Positions 54,929 through 64,000 of a stretch of 64,000 nucleotides of DNA are shown piece by piece; positions within the stretch are counted from its first letter, which is position 1; each line of letters begins with the position of its first letter. Location of the stretch: contig OY782041.1 in assembly GCA_963677595.1 (NCBI GenBank), positions 2,304,001 through 2,368,000 on the forward strand, written 5' to 3'. This DNA is from Spirochaetia bacterium. Its GTDB lineage: Bacteria; Spirochaetota; Spirochaetia; CAKZLE01. The notes under the pieces were generated by a model, which was not told the origin of the DNA, made no database searches, and saw only the letters and a list, made by a program, of their open reading frames with translations. A program made the position numbers and the translations under genes.

Positions 54929-55071
54929 GGTTAAAATTAAAGAATCTGTACGGTTGAAATTAAAGAATATGTACGGTTGAAATTGAAGAATATGTACGGT
55001 TGAAATTGAAGAATATGTACGGTTGAAATTGAAGAATATGTACGGTTGAAATTGAAGAATATGTACGGTTG
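54929..55071 (+). repeat. 23-bp tandem repeat, five full copies plus two partial
   Basis: Unit (g/a)aagaat(a/c)tgtacggttgaaatt starts at 54939, 54962, 54985, 55008, 55031 and partially at 55054; no spacers. Confidence 0.97.
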
Positions 55072-55080
55072 TGGTATATT
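55052..55080 (+). promoter_or_regulatory. Promoter formed by the last repeat units
   Basis: TTGAAG (55052-55057)-17 bp-TATATT (55075-55080) with a TGn extension. Confidence 0.55.
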
Positions 55081-55098
55081 GAAGAGGAAGGACCGGCT

Positions 55099-56376
55099 AT
55101 GAATGAGAAAGAATATATCCCTCGAGTACTAGATGCCCAGGTGCAGCGATACCTCGATGTGTTCGGGGCAATCTGTATTGAAGGCCCCAAATGGTGCGGT
55201 AAGACCATGACCTCCCAGCATCATAGTGAGAGCAGCTTCTTTGTGGGAGACCCGGCAAGGGCGTTCAATAACCGGACCATGGCTATGATGGATCCTGCCG
55301 TGGTCCTTAACGGGGCTGTTCCCCGTATGCTGGATGAATGGCAGGAAGTACCCTCCCTGTGGGATGCTGTTCGTTATGCCGTTGATGAACGGGGAGGCCC
55401 GGGGCAATTCATTCTGACTGGTTCCTCGACTCCAGTCCAGAAGGGAATCCTCCACAGCGGGGCAGGAAGGATTGCGCGGATCCGTATGAGACCGATGTCC
55501 CTGTTCGAATCCGGGGATTCGACCGGACAGGTCTCACTGGGTGCTCTGTTCAGACAGGAATCGGTCTCTGCAATCACTGGTGAAGTATCCCTGGAAAGAT
55601 TGATCCAATACATAATCAGGGGAGGGTGGCCACAGACCATAAGGGCAGACTTCAGTCTTGCCCGCTTGACCCCAAAGGAGTATATCAGGGCGATTCTTGC
55701 TGATGATCTTTCACGGTTGGATGGGGTAAGAAGGGATATGCAAAAAGTTAGCCTGCTGCTCAGGTCTCTGGCCAGGAACGAGAGTACTACTGTCTCGAAT
55801 AGAACACTGGTAAAGGATATCAAGGACCATGGAGATGGGAGCCTGCATATCGGGACCGTAGCCGAGTATCTCAGCCTGTTCGATAGATTGTTCCTGACAG
55901 ATAACCAGAAGCCATTCAGTCCCAATGTTCGTTCTACCGTACGGATCAGACAGGCTGAGAAACGACATCTGGCCGATCCGTCTCTTGCATGTGCCGTATT
56001 GGGGATCACCCAGGGGGCACTCCTGCAGGACCTGAGGACTCTGGGCTTCCTGTTTGAAGCATTGTGTGAGCGAGATCTTGCTGTCTATGCCCAAGCTCAT
56101 GGGTCTGAGCTATACCATTACCAGGATTATGCAGGGAGAGAGATCGATGCGGTGATCGAACTTCAGGATGGCAACTGGGGAGCCTTTGAGATAAAGCTTG
56201 GTGCAAACCAGATCGATGAGGCTGCCAAGAACCTGATATCCCTGTATCGGTCATTCGCAGAGGCTCCTGTGGGGCGACCGCCTCAGTTCTTGTGTGTGAT
56301 CTGCGGGTTATCGAATGCTGCCTACAGGAGACCTGACGGGGTATATGTTGTCCCGATCACTGCGCTGAAGGATTAA
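55099..56376 (+). CDS. AAA_14 ATPase with DUF4143 C-terminus, paralog 2
   Basis: EGPKWCGKT, LDEWQ, FILTGS, HSGAGRI, KRHLADPSLA, EIDAV...FEIKLG. Confidence 0.92.
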   Translation: MNEKEYIPRVLDAQVQRYLDVFGAICIEGPKWCGKTMTSQHHSESSFFVGDPARAFNNRTMAMMDPAVVLNGAVPRMLDEWQEVPSLWDAVRYAVDERGGPGQFILTGSSTPVQKGILHSGAGRIARIRMRPMSLFESGDSTGQVSLGALFRQESVSAITGEVSLERLIQYIIRGGWPQTIRADFSLARLTPKEYIRAILADDLSRLDGVRRDMQKVSLLLRSLARNESTTVSNRTLVKDIKDHGDGSLHIGTVAEYLSLFDRLFLTDNQKPFSPNVRSTVRIRQAEKRHLADPSLACAVLGITQGALLQDLRTLGFLFEALCERDLAVYAQAHGSELYHYQDYAGREIDAVIELQDGNWGAFEIKLGANQIDEAAKNLISLYRSFAEAPVGRPPQFLCVICGLSNAAYRRPDGVYVVPITALKD

Positions 56377-56389
56377 GGCCGTATAGACA

Positions 56390-56428
56390 AAGAAGCTGAC
56401 CTGTGGTGTACAAGTCAGCTTCTTCTTA
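56390..56428. terminator. Bidirectional terminator
   Basis: aagaagctgac (56390-56400) / gtcagcttctt (56414-56424) between convergent genes. Confidence 0.65.
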
Positions 56429-56476
56429 GCATAAGAACGGTATCTTCATCCGGTATTCACCGGCTGAGGATGATGA

Positions 56477-57220
56477 TTACTTTCTCGGTACTGCGGTGAG
56501 TACACCAGCGATCTTGAGCATGTCGCCGTCCAGGGTGACCTGGAGGTCGCCGTCCCAGTAGTACAGGGAGTCAGCGTCTGCACTGATTGACTGTACATCT
56601 GATGCCCATACCTTGGCGTAGTCTACGCCTGCTGCGGTGCCGTCAGCACTGAACTGGCTCTCGATCTCGCTCGTTGAACCGATCTTCCTGCTGCTGGTGG
56701 TGGTCTCAGGCAGTGAGAGGACACCCTTTGAGTCAGTCACGAACTTGTAAGCTGATCCTCGGTGGCAGTACTGGATGGTGATGGTCCCGTCAGCAGCCTT
56801 GTCAGCGATGAGGTTGTCACCCAGCGTCTGTGATCCGGGGTTGTTACCGAAGAGCAGCAGTCCTCGAAGGGCTGAAGTCATGGTTGCCTTAGCCTCGATA
56901 TCATAGAGGGCCATCATGAACAGGTGGGTTGACCCGGCAGCGGAAGCACCGGAGACTGCATCGTACTTGTCCTCTGCAGCCATGTATCGGACGTTGGTCT
57001 TCCAGTTGAAGTAGTTGTCCGTGTCAGAACCTGCCAGGTTGACCTGGTAGTCGATGGTGAGGTCCTCAGACCCATCTGAGACCGGTGCTGCAGGTGCAGC
57101 TGCTGCCGGTGCGGCTGCGGGAGCAGCTGCCGCGGGAGCTTCTTCTTTCTTTGCCGAGCATGAGACCATGCCGAACGCGATGATCGTTACGATCACACAT
57201 AACACTAACACTCTTTTCAT
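56477..57220 (-). CDS. Lipoprotein with an Ala/Pro linker
   Basis: Signal peptide ending MVSC, then APAAAAPAAAPAAAAPAAP; strong RBS. Confidence 0.8.
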   Translation of the reverse strand: MKRVLVLCVIVTIIAFGMVSCSAKKEEAPAAAAPAAAPAAAAPAAPVSDGSEDLTIDYQVNLAGSDTDNYFNWKTNVRYMAAEDKYDAVSGASAAGSTHLFMMALYDIEAKATMTSALRGLLLFGNNPGSQTLGDNLIADKAADGTITIQYCHRGSAYKFVTDSKGVLSLPETTTSSRKIGSTSEIESQFSADGTAAGVDYAKVWASDVQSISADADSLYYWDGDLQVTLDGDMLKIAGVLTAVPRK

Positions 57221-57479
57221 ATCTCTCTCTCCTTATCGTATCCCGATCCTGACCGGGAGTTTGATACTGGTACATGTAGTGGAGTCCATGACTCCGTATT
57301 GTTATTGTTACAGATTTTCTAATAATATTCAAGAAAAAGTTACAAAAATAGTAAGTGTTTTATTAATGTGAATCATTGGTATATTAATTCTTCATATAGC
57401 GCGTTAAACATAGCATGCGACAGCTATAAACCTGGGTTCAGGATAACACAGGAAACCTGACTCAGGGTGACCCTGTCTT

Positions 57480-58412
57480 TCAACTGCACTCATACACCGG
57501 GTCGGCAGCCTCCTTCGTATGCGCGGTCACCTCGAAGGTGCAGTCTGAGTATGCATGGCTGCTTCTGCTGTCCTTACCGAACCGGACGGTATCGCCTGTA
57601 AACTCGATGACCAGGGGGACCGTCACCGTCGTCAGGTCCGAACAGAGACCCGCCTTCTCTGAGGGAGTATACAAGAATCGGTTTCCCGAAGGGTCGGTGA
57701 CCCGTATGGCACTGGTCGTGGTACTCAAGGCCGTTACCCTGCCTGTTTCGTCGAACTTCAGGGAGTTTACGTCCCCCACGATACCCAGGGGGTCATTGTC
57801 ATAGGCGTAGATAGTCCCGATCCGTGTCTCGACCGGTAACGGCCCTGCAGGTTCGACTGACCTCACAGCCCCGTCCTCATAGAAGGAGATCCCCACCCTG
57901 GCCTGAAGCCTGCCAGCAGGGGTAGCAGCCTCGATGGTCTCCCCGGGCCAGAGGGTCAGGCTCCTGATGCTGCCGCCTGGGAAGAACGTGATGCTGATCA
58001 CCCTGGCCTCTACCGGCCCGGAAGGGAGCTGCAGGGCAAGGTCCTCAGCCAGGCTGTATTCATCCTGCTCTCCCCAGTAGCCGCTGAGCTTCCCGTTGAG
58101 GGGGAAGAGCTTCTTCACGGACCCGTCATCATGGAAGATGACCATCTCCGCTGACAGTCTCCCGTATCGTGTCGTTATATAAGAGGCATCCTGCAGCGGC
58201 ACCTTCCTGAGGTTCCCGTTCGTATAGAACGTGACCGGCTTCAGGGCCTGCCTGCCGTGCTCCTCGACGGTGTACTGGGGGATGATGACTCCTGCAGGTG
58301 TATCTATCTCGAAGTGCCCGGTGAATACCACCGATGACGGCTGGCCGGACGGGAAGGTCTCGAGGTTCTGGTAGTCCTCTATGTTCCCATATTTGGTTCT
58401 CAGCATATGCAT
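57480..58412 (-). CDS. Conserved hypothetical protein with repeated beta-hairpin (FY..G...S) motifs
   Basis: Repeats FYTNGNLRKV, FHDDGSVKKL, FFPGGSIRSL, FYEDGAVRSV; RBS ggagg. Confidence 0.75.
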   Translation of the reverse strand: MHMLRTKYGNIEDYQNLETFPSGQPSSVVFTGHFEIDTPAGVIIPQYTVEEHGRQALKPVTFYTNGNLRKVPLQDASYITTRYGRLSAEMVIFHDDGSVKKLFPLNGKLSGYWGEQDEYSLAEDLALQLPSGPVEARVISITFFPGGSIRSLTLWPGETIEAATPAGRLQARVGISFYEDGAVRSVEPAGPLPVETRIGTIYAYDNDPLGIVGDVNSLKFDETGRVTALSTTTSAIRVTDPSGNRFLYTPSEKAGLCSDLTTVTVPLVIEFTGDTVRFGKDSRSSHAYSDCTFEVTAHTKEAADPVYECS

Positions 58413-58607
58413 GTTCCTCCAACACAGGGGATCCTGCTCTCATCAGGTCGTGAAAGCTCCCCGTCGGTATTGATGAACGGCGGGGATCTCCTGCCGCTCC
58501 AACGCACACTGCTTCGGGTGCAGTATAGCCTAATCGGGGGATTAGGGACAGCGCAGCGGCAGGGGTTTGACTGAATATGGTATACTATGGACAGATGAGG
58601 AGCTCAT

Positions 58608-58943
58608 ATGCATGAAGTAGTACAGGTAATACCGCAAGATGACGTTGCTGCGAATATGGTGATCCCTGAAGACTTCAAAGAAGATGTTGATCTCGCCGTC
58701 GGGTATCTGAGAACGTTGGCAGTGGCCGAGATGTACCTTTTTGGGTCTGTGGTGCATGGTACCCAGACAGCAGCATCTGATCTGGATATTGCCGTCCGTG
58801 GCATTGATCCCCTGGATTTCTTCCTGGCGGTTGCTGAGCTCCAAGGCCTGCTTGCGCATGGGATCGATCTCATCAACCTTGATTTCAGGGACGAATTCAC
58901 TGAACAGCTGGAGCTGTCAGGAGAGCTCCAGCGTATCTTTTGA
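58608..58943 (+). CDS. Minimal nucleotidyltransferase (MNT), no adjacent HEPN partner
   Basis: YLFGS..HG....SDLDIAV...IDLI motif. Confidence 0.85.
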   Translation: MHEVVQVIPQDDVAANMVIPEDFKEDVDLAVGYLRTLAVAEMYLFGSVVHGTQTAASDLDIAVRGIDPLDFFLAVAELQGLLAHGIDLINLDFRDEFTEQLELSGELQRIF

Positions 58944-58944
58944 G

Positions 58945-60288
58945 TTACTGGCTTTCCAGGAGGAACCTCCAGGCAGGGACCACTTCTATCCGGTATGCTC
59001 CCCTTTCCAGGCTCTCTTCGGTGTTGGAGGTGATGATAACCGAAGAGTCTATCCCGTATTCTTCCATCGCTTCCCAGAGCGCGGTCGTCTCGCGTTCACG
59101 GGTCTCAGTTTCACCCATCTCATAGCAGACCTGGTAGAGGCTGACAGCCATCCTGTCTTCTACGGTCTCGGTTCGTGATACGGTGATGAAGTCGATCTCT
59201 TTCCCGCTCTTTGTCTTCCCGTAGTAGATCTGGTCGGTTTCGTGACGAAGATGGATGAATACGATGTTCTCGAGGATCTTCCCTTTATCAGGAGTCAGCC
59301 TGTCAGTCACTGACAGGGCCAGCGCATGGTCTGCACAATAGATCTTTTTAGGATTCGTTGCACGCACAGCGGTGTTCATGCTGAATATCTCCACACTGTA
59401 CAGCAGATAGGCATCTTCGAAATATCTTATTACCTGGCCTATCATGGCTATGGACATCTTATACCGTTCTCCCGCCATTCGCTGTTTCAGTTTGGTGAAG
59501 GAAGCAAGCCCTGACATCTGGTTCAGGCACATCTGCATGAGACGCCGTACTTCGCTGGCATGCTTCAGCCCGTACCGCTGGAGGACATCCCGGAAGACAA
59601 CGGCATCTGCGAGATTCTGCAAATACCGGATCCTTGTCTGCTTTTCCTGCATTTGGGCTGCTTCAGGCATCCCGCCAACCTCCATATATTCGGAGAACCA
59701 AGATCTGTAGAAATGGATGTCGGTACTGGAGATCAGCTCCGGTCTGGGAAGTTCCCGTTGATCCTGTTTTAGCGTGATGTATTCAGCAAACGAGAACGGG
59801 AACAGTTCCCATGCAAGACTTCGCCCCCCGTATTCGGTGGAGATCTCCTTGATGAGCAGTTTGGCTGAGGAGCCGGTAATATTGATCTCGCAGTCCAGGG
59901 TTCTCTGAAGACGATTAACGAATAGTTCCCAATGATGGAGATACTGGATCTCATCAAAGAAGAAGTAGATCTTCTCAGCTGTCTTTTCCGGGAACAGATC
60001 AAAATATACTTCCGAGACCAGTCCCGGTTCCATAGTCCTGAATCCGAAAAGACGATCATCCGAGAAATCGATGATACAGAAATTCTCCTTTGCCGTTCCC
60101 TGTGCGAGCAGTTCCTGCATATAGAGGAGCTGGTATATTGATTTCCCGCATCTCCTGATTCCCGTGATGATCGTTGCTTTGCGTGGTATGTGCTCTACCT
60201 GCAGCCTGCGTGGAATATATCCCTGATTGGTTATCGAATCCTGGTTGTCGAGGATTATCATTCGCAGGTTTCTTTCAAGATCGTTCAT
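58945..60288 (-). CDS. AAA_14 ATPase with DUF4143 C-terminus, paralog 3
   Basis: GIRRCGKS, FFDEIQ, ITGSSAKLL, GGMPE, NPKKIY..D, EIDF...YQVC; RBS before ATG 60288. Confidence 0.9.
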   Translation of the reverse strand: MNDLERNLRMIILDNQDSITNQGYIPRRLQVEHIPRKATIITGIRRCGKSIYQLLYMQELLAQGTAKENFCIIDFSDDRLFGFRTMEPGLVSEVYFDLFPEKTAEKIYFFFDEIQYLHHWELFVNRLQRTLDCEINITGSSAKLLIKEISTEYGGRSLAWELFPFSFAEYITLKQDQRELPRPELISSTDIHFYRSWFSEYMEVGGMPEAAQMQEKQTRIRYLQNLADAVVFRDVLQRYGLKHASEVRRLMQMCLNQMSGLASFTKLKQRMAGERYKMSIAMIGQVIRYFEDAYLLYSVEIFSMNTAVRATNPKKIYCADHALALSVTDRLTPDKGKILENIVFIHLRHETDQIYYGKTKSGKEIDFITVSRTETVEDRMAVSLYQVCYEMGETETRERETTALWEAMEEYGIDSSVIITSNTEESLERGAYRIEVVPAWRFLLESQ

Positions 60289-60519
60289 GTTGACCCCTCT
60301 TGTGATTGTAACCCCGGAAACCAAAACCGTCAATGTTACGTGTATGGATATACCGTAAACCGTACATATAGGATTAACGGTTTTGCTTGAAACCGTTAAA
60401 GTGAAATGTACGGTTTTTAAAGAAGGGAATCGCCTTCAATGCTACACACTCACATGGTCTCAATTCAAACAGCGGTAGGTGGAGGTGGGGTATGATTCGA
60501 TTGCGACAACAGGAAAACG

Positions 60520-61011
60520 CTAGTAGAATCGGGCTCCGGTCCTGCGAAGGAATGTGTAGGTGTCGATGTACGTGACGTCGAATACCTGACAGATATTCGG
60601 GATCTTCACCTTTTTCGCCCCAAGACCGACTGGTGCCTCCTGGGTGACAACGGTGAGATCCTGCACAGCTGCATACGAGATCACCCAGGCATCAGCTTTC
60701 TTGAGAAAGACCGCGGAGTTCTTTGCATCATAGGAACGGGTAACGTAATCAGCTATTTTCGAGAACCTGACTTGAACTTCAGAATCGGGGTCTTGGAACA
60801 AACCTGATAACTTCCTCTCCTTGACCCAGTGAGAAAGAAAGTCGTCTGCTTTATTGTCGTTGAGTTCCTTATAGACAAATGAAGGTGAGATGATACGTTG
60901 TTCTTCAACCAGATGGTCCAGCCAGTTCCAGAACCCGGGGACGATGTCATGGGCATACTCAAAGCGGTGTGACTGAATATAGACATTGGAATCAAGGCAA
61001 TAGGTGATCAC
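60520..61011 (-). CDS. DUF4411-family PIN-like protein
   Basis: YCLDSNVYI, PGFW.WL, FL..ADAWVI.YA, VVTQE, KIPNIC. Confidence 0.88.
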   Translation of the reverse strand: MITYCLDSNVYIQSHRFEYAHDIVPGFWNWLDHLVEEQRIISPSFVYKELNDNKADDFLSHWVKERKLSGLFQDPDSEVQVRFSKIADYVTRSYDAKNSAVFLKKADAWVISYAAVQDLTVVTQEAPVGLGAKKVKIPNICQVFDVTYIDTYTFLRRTGARFY

Positions 61012-62180
61012 GGGAAGCTCCGCATATCGATAAGCTTGTATACGACCGGAACACTCACACTCAGCAGATCAGCTGCATCCCGATAGAGCAGCCTTCGTTC
61101 CTTGATGCTCGAGATCACCGCATCGGTAAAGGATCTTCCGGTTTTTGCGAAGAATGTGTTATAGAAGTTGCCGCCGGAACTGCCTGCTGCTCTCGGTTTC
61201 TCAAGGTTGACATTCTCTTCAAGCATCTGATCATAGAGCTCGAAGAAGCTTTTCCTTGTAATCACTTTCGTTTCCAATAATCTTCTCATGACAACGATCG
61301 TGCTGATCTTGAAATCCTTGGATAGTTGAATGATCTGCTGGTAGTCTATTGCCGGAGATTTCTTTGGTAAGAGCGATTCAGGAGCCAGTAATTCGGCAGC
61401 AATCCGGTTACAGGTTCTTTCCAGGTCCTGAACATCATCAAGCTCCTGGTCATCGGGGTTCAGATTCGATATCCCGCTCTTGCCGAACCACAGGTGAGCA
61501 AGTTCATGGGCAAGTGTGAAGATCTGCCCTGCATAGCAGTCATTGGAATTGATGAAGATGTAGGGACTGTACTCATCGCAGAGGGCAAAACCACGGAATT
61601 CAGAGATGCTCAACTTGCGGTGAGTATTGTTCCCTACAACACCGCTCCTGATAACCGTGATTCCCGCTTGCTCGCAGATATCAATGATGGTTCTGAGGTA
61701 ATCAGGTCTGGAATTGACAGTGGAGAAGAGGTTCTCAGGCCAATCCAGAGTTTTTCGAATATCTGCAGCAATAGTATGAACAGGGTCTGTAAGGCTGAAC
61801 GATCCGATACACCTGAGAGGGGATTTCTCCTCCTCTTTACTATAGGCCGAATACCATTCCTGCTGCCGAAGGACGATGTTGATCATATCACGTAGATCAA
61901 TGCTCGCATCCTGGAATCGCAGATCTTTGATGGTTCGGAAGTCCGTAATAGGCAGTTCGTCGGCTTTGGGAGGAGTGGATAGATAGAGGTATCCGAATGG
62001 GATCTTGAGGATACGGCCGATATCCAACGCCTGATTGATGGTGGGGAAGGCTTCTCCGGTTTCCCAGGATTGATACTTATCAATATTGACGTGTATTTTA
62101 TCTGCTACGACCTGTTGAGGTACATCTAATCTTGTTCTTCCCCATCTGATGATCTCAGGGTTGATATAAGCAGTTGCCAT
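61008..62180 (-). CDS. XRE HTH - ImmA/IrrE zinc metallopeptidase fusion
   Basis: INPEIIRWGR...WETGEAFPT HTH, DFRT, EFRGF, FTLAHELAH, E..CN..AAELL; 4-bp overlap with DUF4411. Confidence 0.92.
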   Translation of the reverse strand: MATAYINPEIIRWGRTRLDVPQQVVADKIHVNIDKYQSWETGEAFPTINQALDIGRILKIPFGYLYLSTPPKADELPITDFRTIKDLRFQDASIDLRDMINIVLRQQEWYSAYSKEEEKSPLRCIGSFSLTDPVHTIAADIRKTLDWPENLFSTVNSRPDYLRTIIDICEQAGITVIRSGVVGNNTHRKLSISEFRGFALCDEYSPYIFINSNDCYAGQIFTLAHELAHLWFGKSGISNLNPDDQELDDVQDLERTCNRIAAELLAPESLLPKKSPAIDYQQIIQLSKDFKISTIVVMRRLLETKVITRKSFFELYDQMLEENVNLEKPRAAGSSGGNFYNTFFAKTGRSFTDAVISSIKERRLLYRDAADLLSVSVPVVYKLIDMRSFP

Positions 62181-62397
62181 TACTCTTACCTTACTAAAAT
62201 CCTTCTTTCCTTCAGTATATCATCTATCGGATCCACGTGAACGGTTAATTTAAAGTTTCCGATATCTCTTGAATGTATGAGAAAGCAGAAGCTTCTTCAA
62301 GGCTCGAAACGGTAAATGAGGGAGGAGGGTGATCTCTTGTTTGCCGTGCACTCTAAAACCATTGACTTCTATACTTCACCACGCATACAATTCCATC

Positions 62398-62521
62398 ATG
62401 CTGGATAGAGTACCCGCCTGCGAGCGGTTAAAAACAGCATAGGACACGCCGTATGTTCGGGCGTGCTCTGGGTGCATGACGATTTCGTTCTTTAAACGAG
62501 AGCAGTCATGCACCCTTCTTT
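62398..62521 (+). ncRNA. Candidate structured small RNA 1 (domain B, hairpin, terminator)
   Basis: TTGACT(62362)-18-TACAAT(62386); stems atgctg/cagcat, ccgc/gcgg, cacgcc/ggcgtg; 11-bp terminator stem gggtgcatgac/gtcatgcaccc followed by ttcttt. Confidence 0.5.
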
Positions 62522-62559
62522 GATTGACATCCTCCTGTCTCTGGGATGATAATACTGTT

Positions 62560-62686
62560 GTACCGGTGAAGTGACTGGGACTGCGGGCCTAGGAAGTACC
62601 CGGCACGAAGGACCGGACAGAGTACCCGTTATCATGCGGAATAAAAACGGTTCTTGTTTGGGACGCGCTCTTCGGAGCGCGTTTCA
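62560..62686 (+). ncRNA. Candidate structured small RNA 2 (domain A, domain B, UUCG hairpin)
   Basis: TTGACA(62524)-18-GATAAT(62548); shares one domain with each neighbour; ends acgcgctc-ttcg-gagcgcgt-ttc. Confidence 0.5.
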
Positions 62687-62727
62687 ACGAATATTGACTA
62701 ATGTGATCCCCAGGTAGATAATACAGT

Positions 62728-62814
62728 TGCATTCGCGAATAGACCGTGTCTGTGAACCGGGCAGTACCGAATGTGTAATGAAGCGCGCTCCTTGGGGTGC
62801 GTTTCACTTTTTTT
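62728..62814 (+). ncRNA. Candidate structured small RNA 3 (domain A, terminator)
   Basis: TTGACT(62694)-17-GATAAT(62717); stem gcattcg/cgaatgt; terminator tgaagcgcgctc-cttg-gggtgcgtttca followed by c and T7. Confidence 0.5.
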
Positions 62815-62971
62815 CGGAATCTATCCAAGTTGCGGTATATGATTTGCCAAACCCTTAGGCTCCACAAAGGCTGCCTCCTGTAACTGCCGGAGATCCTTCG
62901 AGGCTGAAGAAAGCCCTCAGCACTATCATATGCAACATACTCGGGCCAGGATCGGAGTAGGGGAAGAAACG

Positions 62972-63760
62972 ATGAGAACTACCATTTTCTGCTTTTCAGG
63001 GACAGGGAACAGTCTTGCCGCAGCAAGGGGCATCAGTAATATCCTTGGGGATACTGAGGTCATTCTCATCACCGACCTGCTCGATGCAGGCAGTATCGAG
63101 GTCTCCCAAGAGTGTGTCGGTATCGTCTGCCCGGTCTATTTCGGTGGGAATATCCCCCCGATCGTAGTGAGGTTCATGCAAAAGCTTGAACTGAAAGGGG
63201 TGAAGTACATCTTTGCTGTCACTACCGCCGGAGCGATGCACGGGAGATCTCTCGATCTCCTCTCAGAGTTGATCGATCGTCGTGGCGGGCATCTGCATGC
63301 CGGGTTCAAGCTCAGCATGCCGGGTAACTACATCGCCATGTACGGTGCCTGGCCTGCTGCCCTTCAGCAGTTGATGCTGAGAAGGAGTAGTAACAAGGTG
63401 AACAGGATCGCATATGCTATCAGGGACAAGAAGACGAACCGCCCGAACGTGACGAAGGAACGGGACATGACACCGCTTTCCGACCGGATGCCTGGTTATC
63501 ATCTGCTGGCCAGAGACTACCGGGTATCTGATGCCTGTACCGGCTGTCAGATCTGCTCAAAGGTCTGTCCTGCAGGGAATATCAGGATGAATAACGGCAA
63601 GCCTGAGTTCGGTGATCATTGTGAGCGCTGTATGGCCTGTATTCAATGGTGTCCGGTCAGGGCGATCGAATACAAGAATAAGACACAGAAAAGAAAACGA
63701 TACACGAATCCCCAGATCAAAGCAGCTGACCTGTTCAGGGAAGGAAACCATACATCATGA
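62972..63760 (+). CDS. EFR1-family flavodoxin-ferredoxin fusion
   Basis: FSGTGNS, MPGNYI, CTGCQICSKVCP and CERCMACIQWCP 4Fe-4S motifs. Confidence 0.93.
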   Translation: MRTTIFCFSGTGNSLAAARGISNILGDTEVILITDLLDAGSIEVSQECVGIVCPVYFGGNIPPIVVRFMQKLELKGVKYIFAVTTAGAMHGRSLDLLSELIDRRGGHLHAGFKLSMPGNYIAMYGAWPAALQQLMLRRSSNKVNRIAYAIRDKKTNRPNVTKERDMTPLSDRMPGYHLLARDYRVSDACTGCQICSKVCPAGNIRMNNGKPEFGDHCERCMACIQWCPVRAIEYKNKTQKRKRYTNPQIKAADLFREGNHTS

Positions 63761-63795
63761 GTACGAAACACTGGAATATTTGCAGAACTGGAAGA

Positions 63796-64000
63796 TCAGG
63801 ATAGACTTATTATCTGTAAGAATCGAGTTTGACACAATTTCGTCGGTAATCGGAACCGAACTTGAACCCGAAGTTCTTTAGGAAGACAGTCTTGCACTGA
63901 ATCCCAAACAAAAGCTCCCAGTTTCGGAATTTCCCTTATGTTGGGATACTTACTGCTGGGAGCGTATTCACAACATAACTCTGCATTTAGCTTAGTGATC
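63796..64000 (-). CDS. Possible 3' end of a gene entering from the right edge
   Basis: 68 codons from the edge to TGA (ITKLNAELCCEY...QIISLS*); no recognisable motif. Confidence 0.25.
   Translation of the reverse strand, partial: ITKLNAELCCEYAPSSKYPNIREIPKLGAFVWDSVQDCLPKELRVQVRFRLPTKLCQTRFLQIISLS

Follow-up and report, generated by a model that had tools for sequence, protein, structure and literature searches.

The window (the whole 64,000-nt stretch analysed here, from the 4.3-Mb spirochaete genome G000) carries an array of three tandem cassettes, each headed by its own promoter, with a pair of genes divergent from it on one side and an EFR1-family gene on the other. The features of the array and its neighbourhood are given below; G734, G745 and G746 are other spirochaete genomes, and L348 is a phage contig, in which homologous units were found.

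60520-61011, minus strand: DUF4411 PIN-like gene, neighbour, divergent from the array
61008-62180, minus strand: XRE-ImmA gene, neighbour, divergent from the array
62362-62391, plus strand: promoter 1, TTGACT-18-TACAAT, 10/12 consensus positions, predicted start at about 62398
62398-62440, plus strand: domain B copy 1 (cassette 1), with an outer stem, internal loop GAYAGAGUAC / WUAAAAA and a 4-bp inner stem
62445-62465, plus strand: 6-bp hairpin (cassette 1), one pair kept as G.U in a strain variant
62470-62522, plus strand: long hairpin with U-rich tail, likely where RNA 1 ends, without a call in the terminator scan
62524-62553, plus strand: promoter 2, TTGACA-18-GATAAT, 11/12 consensus positions
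62559-62607, plus strand: domain A copy 2 (cassette 2), with P1, internal loop NGAAKWGR / NMAGURN, P2 and an 8-nt loop; homolog of an RNA 3' of a phage MuF toxin gene
62610-62653, plus strand: domain B copy 2 (cassette 2), with a homolog in G734 (48.9 bits)
62654-62690, plus strand: hairpin C (cassette 2), without a following U-run, conserved in G734, G745, G746 and L348
62694-62722, plus strand: promoter 3, TTGACT-17-GATAAT, 10/12 consensus positions, hexamers identical to those in the G745 prophage
62728-62775, plus strand: domain A copy 3 (cassette 3), homolog of the unit 3' of the G745 MuF toxin gene
62779-62814, plus strand: hairpin C' (cassette 3), with a 7-T run, terminator-like
62799-62889, minus strand: decayed drum-like RNA (18.6 bits, cut-off 43), convergent on cassette 3
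62972-63760, plus strand: EFR1-family flavodoxin/ferredoxin gene, neighbour
63908-63968, minus strand: TEG147-like hairpin RNA (39 bits, cut-off 56.1, genome E 5e-6)

The three near-consensus promoters that the sequence-only reading had placed at 62362, 62524 and 62694 are all present, and its domain order for successive cassettes, B / A+B / A, is borne out, as is the homology between the end hairpins of cassettes 2 and 3. The number of promoters in the 2.5 kb around the array lies within chance (5 vs 3.3 +/- 1.7 in shuffles); among the 548 sites of the 4.3-Mb genome that score at least 10/12, the array is the sole same-strand triple within 400 nt. The further claim of a terminator for each cassette needs one correction: the scan called an intrinsic terminator in cassette 3 alone. 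Because the end hairpin of cassette 2 has no U-run and a longer tail lies behind C in the homologs, it is a conserved body domain (C) and more than a terminator.

Folding z-scores against shuffles are -5.0, -3.1 and -1.8 for cassettes 1, 2 and 3, respectively, and domain A by itself does not exceed its shuffles in stability (z -0.85 and 0.03). Between the window paralogues of each domain (two sequences only in either case), compensatory changes occur in 5/12 pairs of domain A, matched by 18/500 shuffles, and in 4/10 pairs of domain B, matched by 27/500, and the internal loops of both domains are conserved while the stem pairs vary. This covariation between two paralogues provides modest evidence for the proposed folds of A and B. 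In an alignment of six A copies, 85.7% of cells pair, double changes occur in 6/11 pairs and the covariation score is reached by 0/500 shuffles, in a test where the structure was derived from two of the same six sequences and the shuffles ignore kinship. A search of Rfam gave no match for A, B or C.

Internal loops with AGUA and GAA strands occur in Stem I and the specifier loop of T-box leaders, and the cassettes resemble Stem I in carrying GAAGUGA beside a short capped stem. A T-box assignment was rejected because there is no Rfam match, no T-box bulge or antiterminator, no place as leader of an amino-acid gene, the strand order in A is reversed and the apical loop varies among the six copies. 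Likenesses to SRP RNA, to hammerhead, hatchet and hairpin ribozymes and to retrons were dropped for want of Rfam support.

The array is part of an accessory stretch: in G001, a genome of the same genus, a GGDEF gene (at 53-55 kb in the window) is followed directly by two tRNAs. This stretch also contains, at 55069-60333, a small nucleotidyltransferase gene and two AAA-DUF4143 genes (PADLOC PDC-S01-like). At 0.7 kb past the window end begins a 49-kb prophage-like element, together with a tRNA-Met att fragment; the element carries methyltransferase-like, Vsr-like and PHP-domain genes (labels from sequence reading). At 63755-63903 lies a decayed copy of a small gene that we take to be DUF2442-like, with an intact copy 0.6 kb further on. 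The cassettes have no match to drum RNA (RF02958), and the adjoining segment 62799-62889 falls below its 43-bit cut-off; about 66 nt of this segment are 77% identical to a true drum (90.4 bits) 5' of a PBECR4 gene in genome G005, and this homology marks it as a drum relic. The intact G005 drum (L002:176-283) has its own promoter and a terminator-like hairpin, followed by the PBECR4 gene (332-940) with a holin-like gene adjoining, which suggests that drum and PBECR4 form another RNA-nuclease pair; neither DUF3800 nor PBECR4 was found in G000. The TEG147-like hairpin, 1.1 kb from the array, has an AGUA/GAA loop and a promoter-like TTGACA-17-TAAGCT straddling the window end; it is possibly a further orphan RNA, and no second match to it was found in 150 class genomes.

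We then compared the cassettes with other spirochaete genomes and with phage contigs. BLAST over 400 class genomes gave three matches, one of which is real, in G734 (86% over 92 nt). Here a TTGACA-17-GATACT promoter, lying just 3' of tRNA-Lys(UUU), heads an A-A'-B-C order and a tail. A search of 150 G734 relatives added two genomes of its genus (G745 and G746); three other matches are due to chance. The unit in G746 has a broken A-A'-C order without B, with a DGR-type reverse transcriptase gene before it and G734's downstream gene after it. In G745, a promoter with an A-C order lies in a Mu-like prophage, immediately 3' of the stop codon of a MuF head gene; this unit scores 40.1 bits with model R2 (E 1e-9), and cassette 3 aligns to it with 75 identities, 14 mismatches and 3 gaps. 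The phage contig L348 likewise carries a promoter, an A-A'-C order (26.6 bits) and a tail 3' of a toxin gene. The chromosomal cassette of G734 aligns to L348 with 171 identities, 22 mismatches and 47 gaps (the gaps being about the length of the B module), and its promoter is still readable as the toxin's last codons. Homology and position show that the promoter + A + C unit derives from the slot 3' of a MuF-CdiA_C-like gene.

The MuF toxin was not found in G000, G734 or G746. It is present in only 1/9 genomes of genus g278 (G745), so the RNAs of G734 and G746 are orphans as far as the query shows, and orphan RNA copies with shuffled domains occur in three chromosomes. What stands of the modular sRNA array claimed for the window is a set of modular, separately promoted structured RNAs, a view supported by covariation, by the other domain orders of the homologs and by variation among strains. 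In G734 (L324, about 1590-1460, minus strand), a short direct repeat flanks the segment of B, C and tail, a possible trace of module insertion. In G746 (L335:6663-9362), the DGR-type element, with its reverse transcriptase, a weak Avd-like gene and a target gene with a repeat, abuts the broken first A.

Wider searches added no homolog. An exact 17-mer search gave 0 matches, and BLAST against plasmids and phages gave none. Pattern scans for B returned 14 matches in genome contigs, none homologous, and 13 in viral contigs, none convincing; those for A returned one viral and two metagenome matches, all in coding DNA, and four matches in 400 phylum genomes vs six control matches. Looser viral scans yielded no homolog among the matches listed (at least 120 each). 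Models built on two sequences gave, in 150 class genomes, one match for A and nine in seven genomes for B, every one of them in coding DNA or in an inverted repeat that is unrelated; the genuine G734 copy also escaped the A model in a whole-genome search, so that blanks from the A and B models are weak. One repeat encountered, in G516 (L047, L051 and L052), is MITE-like, with inverted repeats about 100 nt apart in three copies, and is unrelated to B.

The gene linked to the G745 unit belongs to a phage head module: its neighbours include terminase-like, portal-like and scaffold-like genes, and its product matches MuF (PF04233, 40.2 bits). The product is extended at its C-terminus by about 165 aa, and this part matches Pfam CdiA_C at 25.4 bits (E 1.7e-5), just below the cut-off of 26.6, and MuF and CdiA_C are the only family matches of the product. 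Four residues of the CdiA_C-like domain (E, D, E and K) are invariant in seven relatives. The domain has no match in the PDB by sequence; its structural model (pLDDT 89) has as best fold match the Burkholderia pseudomallei CdiA-CT 4g6v_A (prob 0.99, E 0.02, TM 0.48/0.57). The CdiA domain of Bp1026b is a tRNA nuclease (PMC5576092), and the MuF C-terminal domain is predicted from its modelled fold to be a tRNA-cutting nuclease toxin.

Linkage between the promoter-RNA unit and the toxin gene was examined in relatives of the toxin domain, which occur in 5/261 class genomes and 7/149 genomes of G745's family. Eight viral loci came from a scan with the adjoining scaffold gene as query; a search with only the toxin domain returned none of viral origin. 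Viral loci L351 and L355, without a MuF match, were left out of the comparison, L352 was dropped as a repeat of L345, and the toxin clade comprises ten distinct loci. A TTGAC-17-TA promoter lies at the gene end in 10/10 of these, scoring at least 9/12 in 9/10, and in 6/10 its position is -21 exactly, with Leu-Thr codons spelling the -35 box. The background for such an end-of-gene promoter is 6/58 control stops, and no such promoter is present at toxin-less MuF genes from this phage group (0/3), one of which has a terminator-like hairpin only. The Fisher value of 9e-7 overstates this linkage because the loci are kin and the toxin-less control consists of three loci. In the small sample examined, the promoter-RNA unit is restricted to toxin-bearing MuF genes; the promoter is absent from more distant CdiA_C-like matches (two in G588 and one in G238).

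Downstream of the promoter, a hairpin with a T-run lies within 200 nt in 9/10 clade loci, and the scaffold gene starts 289-464 nt downstream in 8/10. A clear domain A lies 3' of the toxin in two of the ten loci (G745 and L348), with a weak third in G630 (14.2 bits, E 0.06), and the remaining loci have hairpin RNAs of different sequence in this place. Such differences would be expected from joint divergence of the RNA and its toxin (30-50% identical). Domain B was found 3' of the toxin gene in 0/17 loci searched. A screen for ATG frames of at least 60 aa before the scaffold gene found none in 6/8 genome loci; G601 meets the contig end, and G556 has a 70-codon ATG frame at +29, and the immunity factor in this slot may yet be a peptide. 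Eight further loci, L344, L345, L346, L347, L337, L338, L340 and L349, each show a promoter-hairpin-terminator RNA of its own sequence directly 3' of the stop of the respective MuF toxin variant.

Variation between strains bears on the window copy itself. A related-strain contig from run X4 (depth 2.1, sequence errors possible) spans 62616-62845 and differs from the window at nine positions, eight of which are listed. Five of the eight listed substitutions fall in the 17-nt spacer of promoter 3, an excess with P 6e-5 (1e-4 should the ninth difference fall elsewhere) that was computed post hoc from one contig. The promoter 3 hexamers, the B2 core, hairpin C and A3 are all free of listed substitutions; one substitution replaces a G.U by an A-U pair, and another lies at the outermost pair of hairpin C'. 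A 92-aa frame across the array on the minus strand is frameshifted by a 1-nt deletion in the strain variant. In a second contig from the same sample (X2), one pair is retained as G.U and one loop base is lost. Run X1, possibly the source sample, yielded a 2839-nt contig (depth 2.6) in which an A3-like domain is fused directly to hairpin C in a different context.

Taken together, these results lead us to favour, with somewhat better than even confidence, the reading that the window cassettes are RNA antitoxins against a polymorphic toxin linked to the virion, and that the host has captured them as an orphan immunity array while lacking the toxin gene. The suggestion of RNA antitoxins or decoys was likely right as to class, but their partner is not the XRE-ImmA/DUF4411 pair: the homologs point to a phage MuF protein with a CdiA_C-like nuclease domain. 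In such a system, the near-consensus promoter in the toxin's last codons would give constitutive RNA in lysogens, and the RNA would occupy the slot where MuF toxins usually have a protein immunity gene. The conserved internal loop, held on covarying stems, may be read by shape by the nuclease, as in type III antitoxins, and is possibly a substrate mimic; by binding the nuclease through this loop the RNA would block it, in the manner of the AbiF antitoxin. Hosts that lose the prophage would keep the RNA units, duplicating and shuffling them, with a separate A variant for each toxin variant, and the orphan copies would give protection when related phages deliver or produce the toxin. Domain B, the drum relic and the TEG147-like RNA would be antidotes to other nucleases, gathered at the same accessory site. 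More tentatively, and at a little under an even chance, spirochaete Mu-like phages may in general pair a head tRNase with an RNA antidote whose promoter lies in the toxin's last codons, and hosts may capture, shuffle and array such antidotes as acquired immunity against several phage nucleases.

Other explanations have to be weighed against the same observations. At lambda pR' and HK022 put, a strong promoter gives a short terminated RNA that is read through upon antitermination, and the phage unit could be a comparable control leader for the scaffold and capsid genes, the host copies being relics. The scaffold gene follows it on the same strand after 290-460 nt, and L348 has two tandem hairpins straight after the promoter. 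We nevertheless regard this as rather unlikely: the unit is absent from 3/3 toxin-less MuF genes, which run almost directly into a palindromic element that in the toxin loci, too, precedes the scaffold gene. In addition, the host copies have undergone duplication and shuffling and appear to be under selection. Genetic linkage is silent on the sign of an interaction, and the RNA could instead be kept as a cofactor, activator or packaging partner of the nuclease, or as a phage sRNA that sponges a host protein. A conserved loop would fit any protein-binding RNA, and sarcin-ricin-type loops are known from several protein-bound RNA families (PMC13085918). Against these roles, which we consider unlikely, an activator without its enzyme would be of little gain to a host, and the slot 3' of a MuF toxin is the immunity slot.

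The RNAs might also be antitoxins in phages while their chromosomal copies are inert leftovers of decayed prophages. The window has other relics nearby (the decayed drum, the decayed DUF2442-like copy and the tRNA-Met att fragment), the G746 A is broken by a DGR-type insertion and the RNAs are present in few genomes; the array, however, has no flanking phage head genes, its three promoters are intact, substitutions spare the RNA bodies and B is gained or lost as a module, which together make inert remains quite improbable. Adjacency is all that speaks for an antitoxin or regulator of XRE-ImmA/DUF4411, a riboswitch of the EFR1 gene or an antisense sRNA, and this group of readings is largely refuted and very improbable. 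The XRE-ImmA/DUF4411 pair is described, in the accessible text of PMC5499597, as a three-part, protein-only module. The G005 module, 78% identical in DNA, has a different upstream gene and no match to the A or B models, and its homology with the window ends at 62302, so the proposed ImmA/DUF4411 link finds no support; this comparison covered G005 in full and other DUF4411 loci with 1.5 kb of flank, possibly short of the upstream region. None of the four homologous units lies beside XRE-ImmA/DUF4411 or EFR1 genes. For extended pairing, the longest complementarity of the RNAs in G000 is 13-15 nt, within the 13-17 nt of shuffles, and an antisense sRNA or type I antitoxin acting through such extended pairing was rejected on this ground; pairing by a short seed may still occur.

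The favoured reading, RNA antitoxins held as an orphan array, has partial parallels in known systems. In the type III-like AbiF system, and in the type III systems ToxIN, CptIN and TenpIN, the RNA precedes the toxin on a common transcript, with a terminator between the two in the type III layout, whereas the phage unit follows its toxin gene and has its promoter within the last codons of that gene. An RNA gene linked to a nuclease toxin gene is found in G745 and L348, while the window itself has no toxin. Neither ToxN nor AbiF nor their RNAs appear as family matches (by Rfam for the RNAs; the linked protein matches MuF and CdiA_C). Because both layout and family matches fail, the unit is not classed as a type III antitoxin, although its proposed action is like that of type III. 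Gut Bacteroidales carry orphan immunity arrays of proteins, collected without the toxins, against secreted effectors; the window array is likewise without toxins but consists of RNAs, predicted to act against a phage-borne toxin.

The closest layout is that of AbiF, where a short RNA (RCd22), with one or two hairpin motifs in repeat between a promoter of its own and a terminator, neutralizes the nuclease on the basis of structure (10.1101/2025.04.15.648962). The promoter-hairpins-terminator layout of the cassettes is the same; the AbiF and ToxIN toxins differ in fold from the linked toxin here (PD-(D/E)XK-type). At about 1.892 Mb (L064:1340-2043), G000 has an apparently truncated AbiF/Abi_2 gene with IS66-like genes after it; upstream of this gene are a promoter and a hairpin RNA that differs from the cassettes and has no Rfam score.

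The MuF polymorphic toxins of temperate phages are alike in joining a MuF head protein to a C-terminal toxin domain, and their immunity element is expected directly 3' of the gene, where the available text reports a small putative immunity ORF for 89.4% of 191 MuF toxin genes (PMC5576092); here a putative RNA gene is in that slot. Neither an RNA in the MuF immunity slot nor host arrays of such RNAs were found in the literature searched, which is thin in subscription papers. If the favoured reading is true, RNA would serve as polymorphic-toxin immunity, a role given to small proteins in the MuF paper (PMC5576092), and captured RNA antidotes arrayed in a host would amount to a new form of immunity. 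G745 and L348 offer matched, directly testable toxin-RNA pairs with natural orphan variants.

Drum, DUF3800-I to -XI and skipping-rope are structured RNAs with terminators that are tied to a nearby protein gene, the DUF3800-type motifs being many unrelated structures for one protein family, and the accessible part of the describing paper gives no hypothesis on their function (PMC5737381). None of these models matches domain A, B or C, and the linked gene here is MuF-CdiA_C. Our reading offers a hypothesis for the function of such protein-linked motifs as the drum and DUF3800 RNAs, and in the window the drum relic directly abuts cassette 3.
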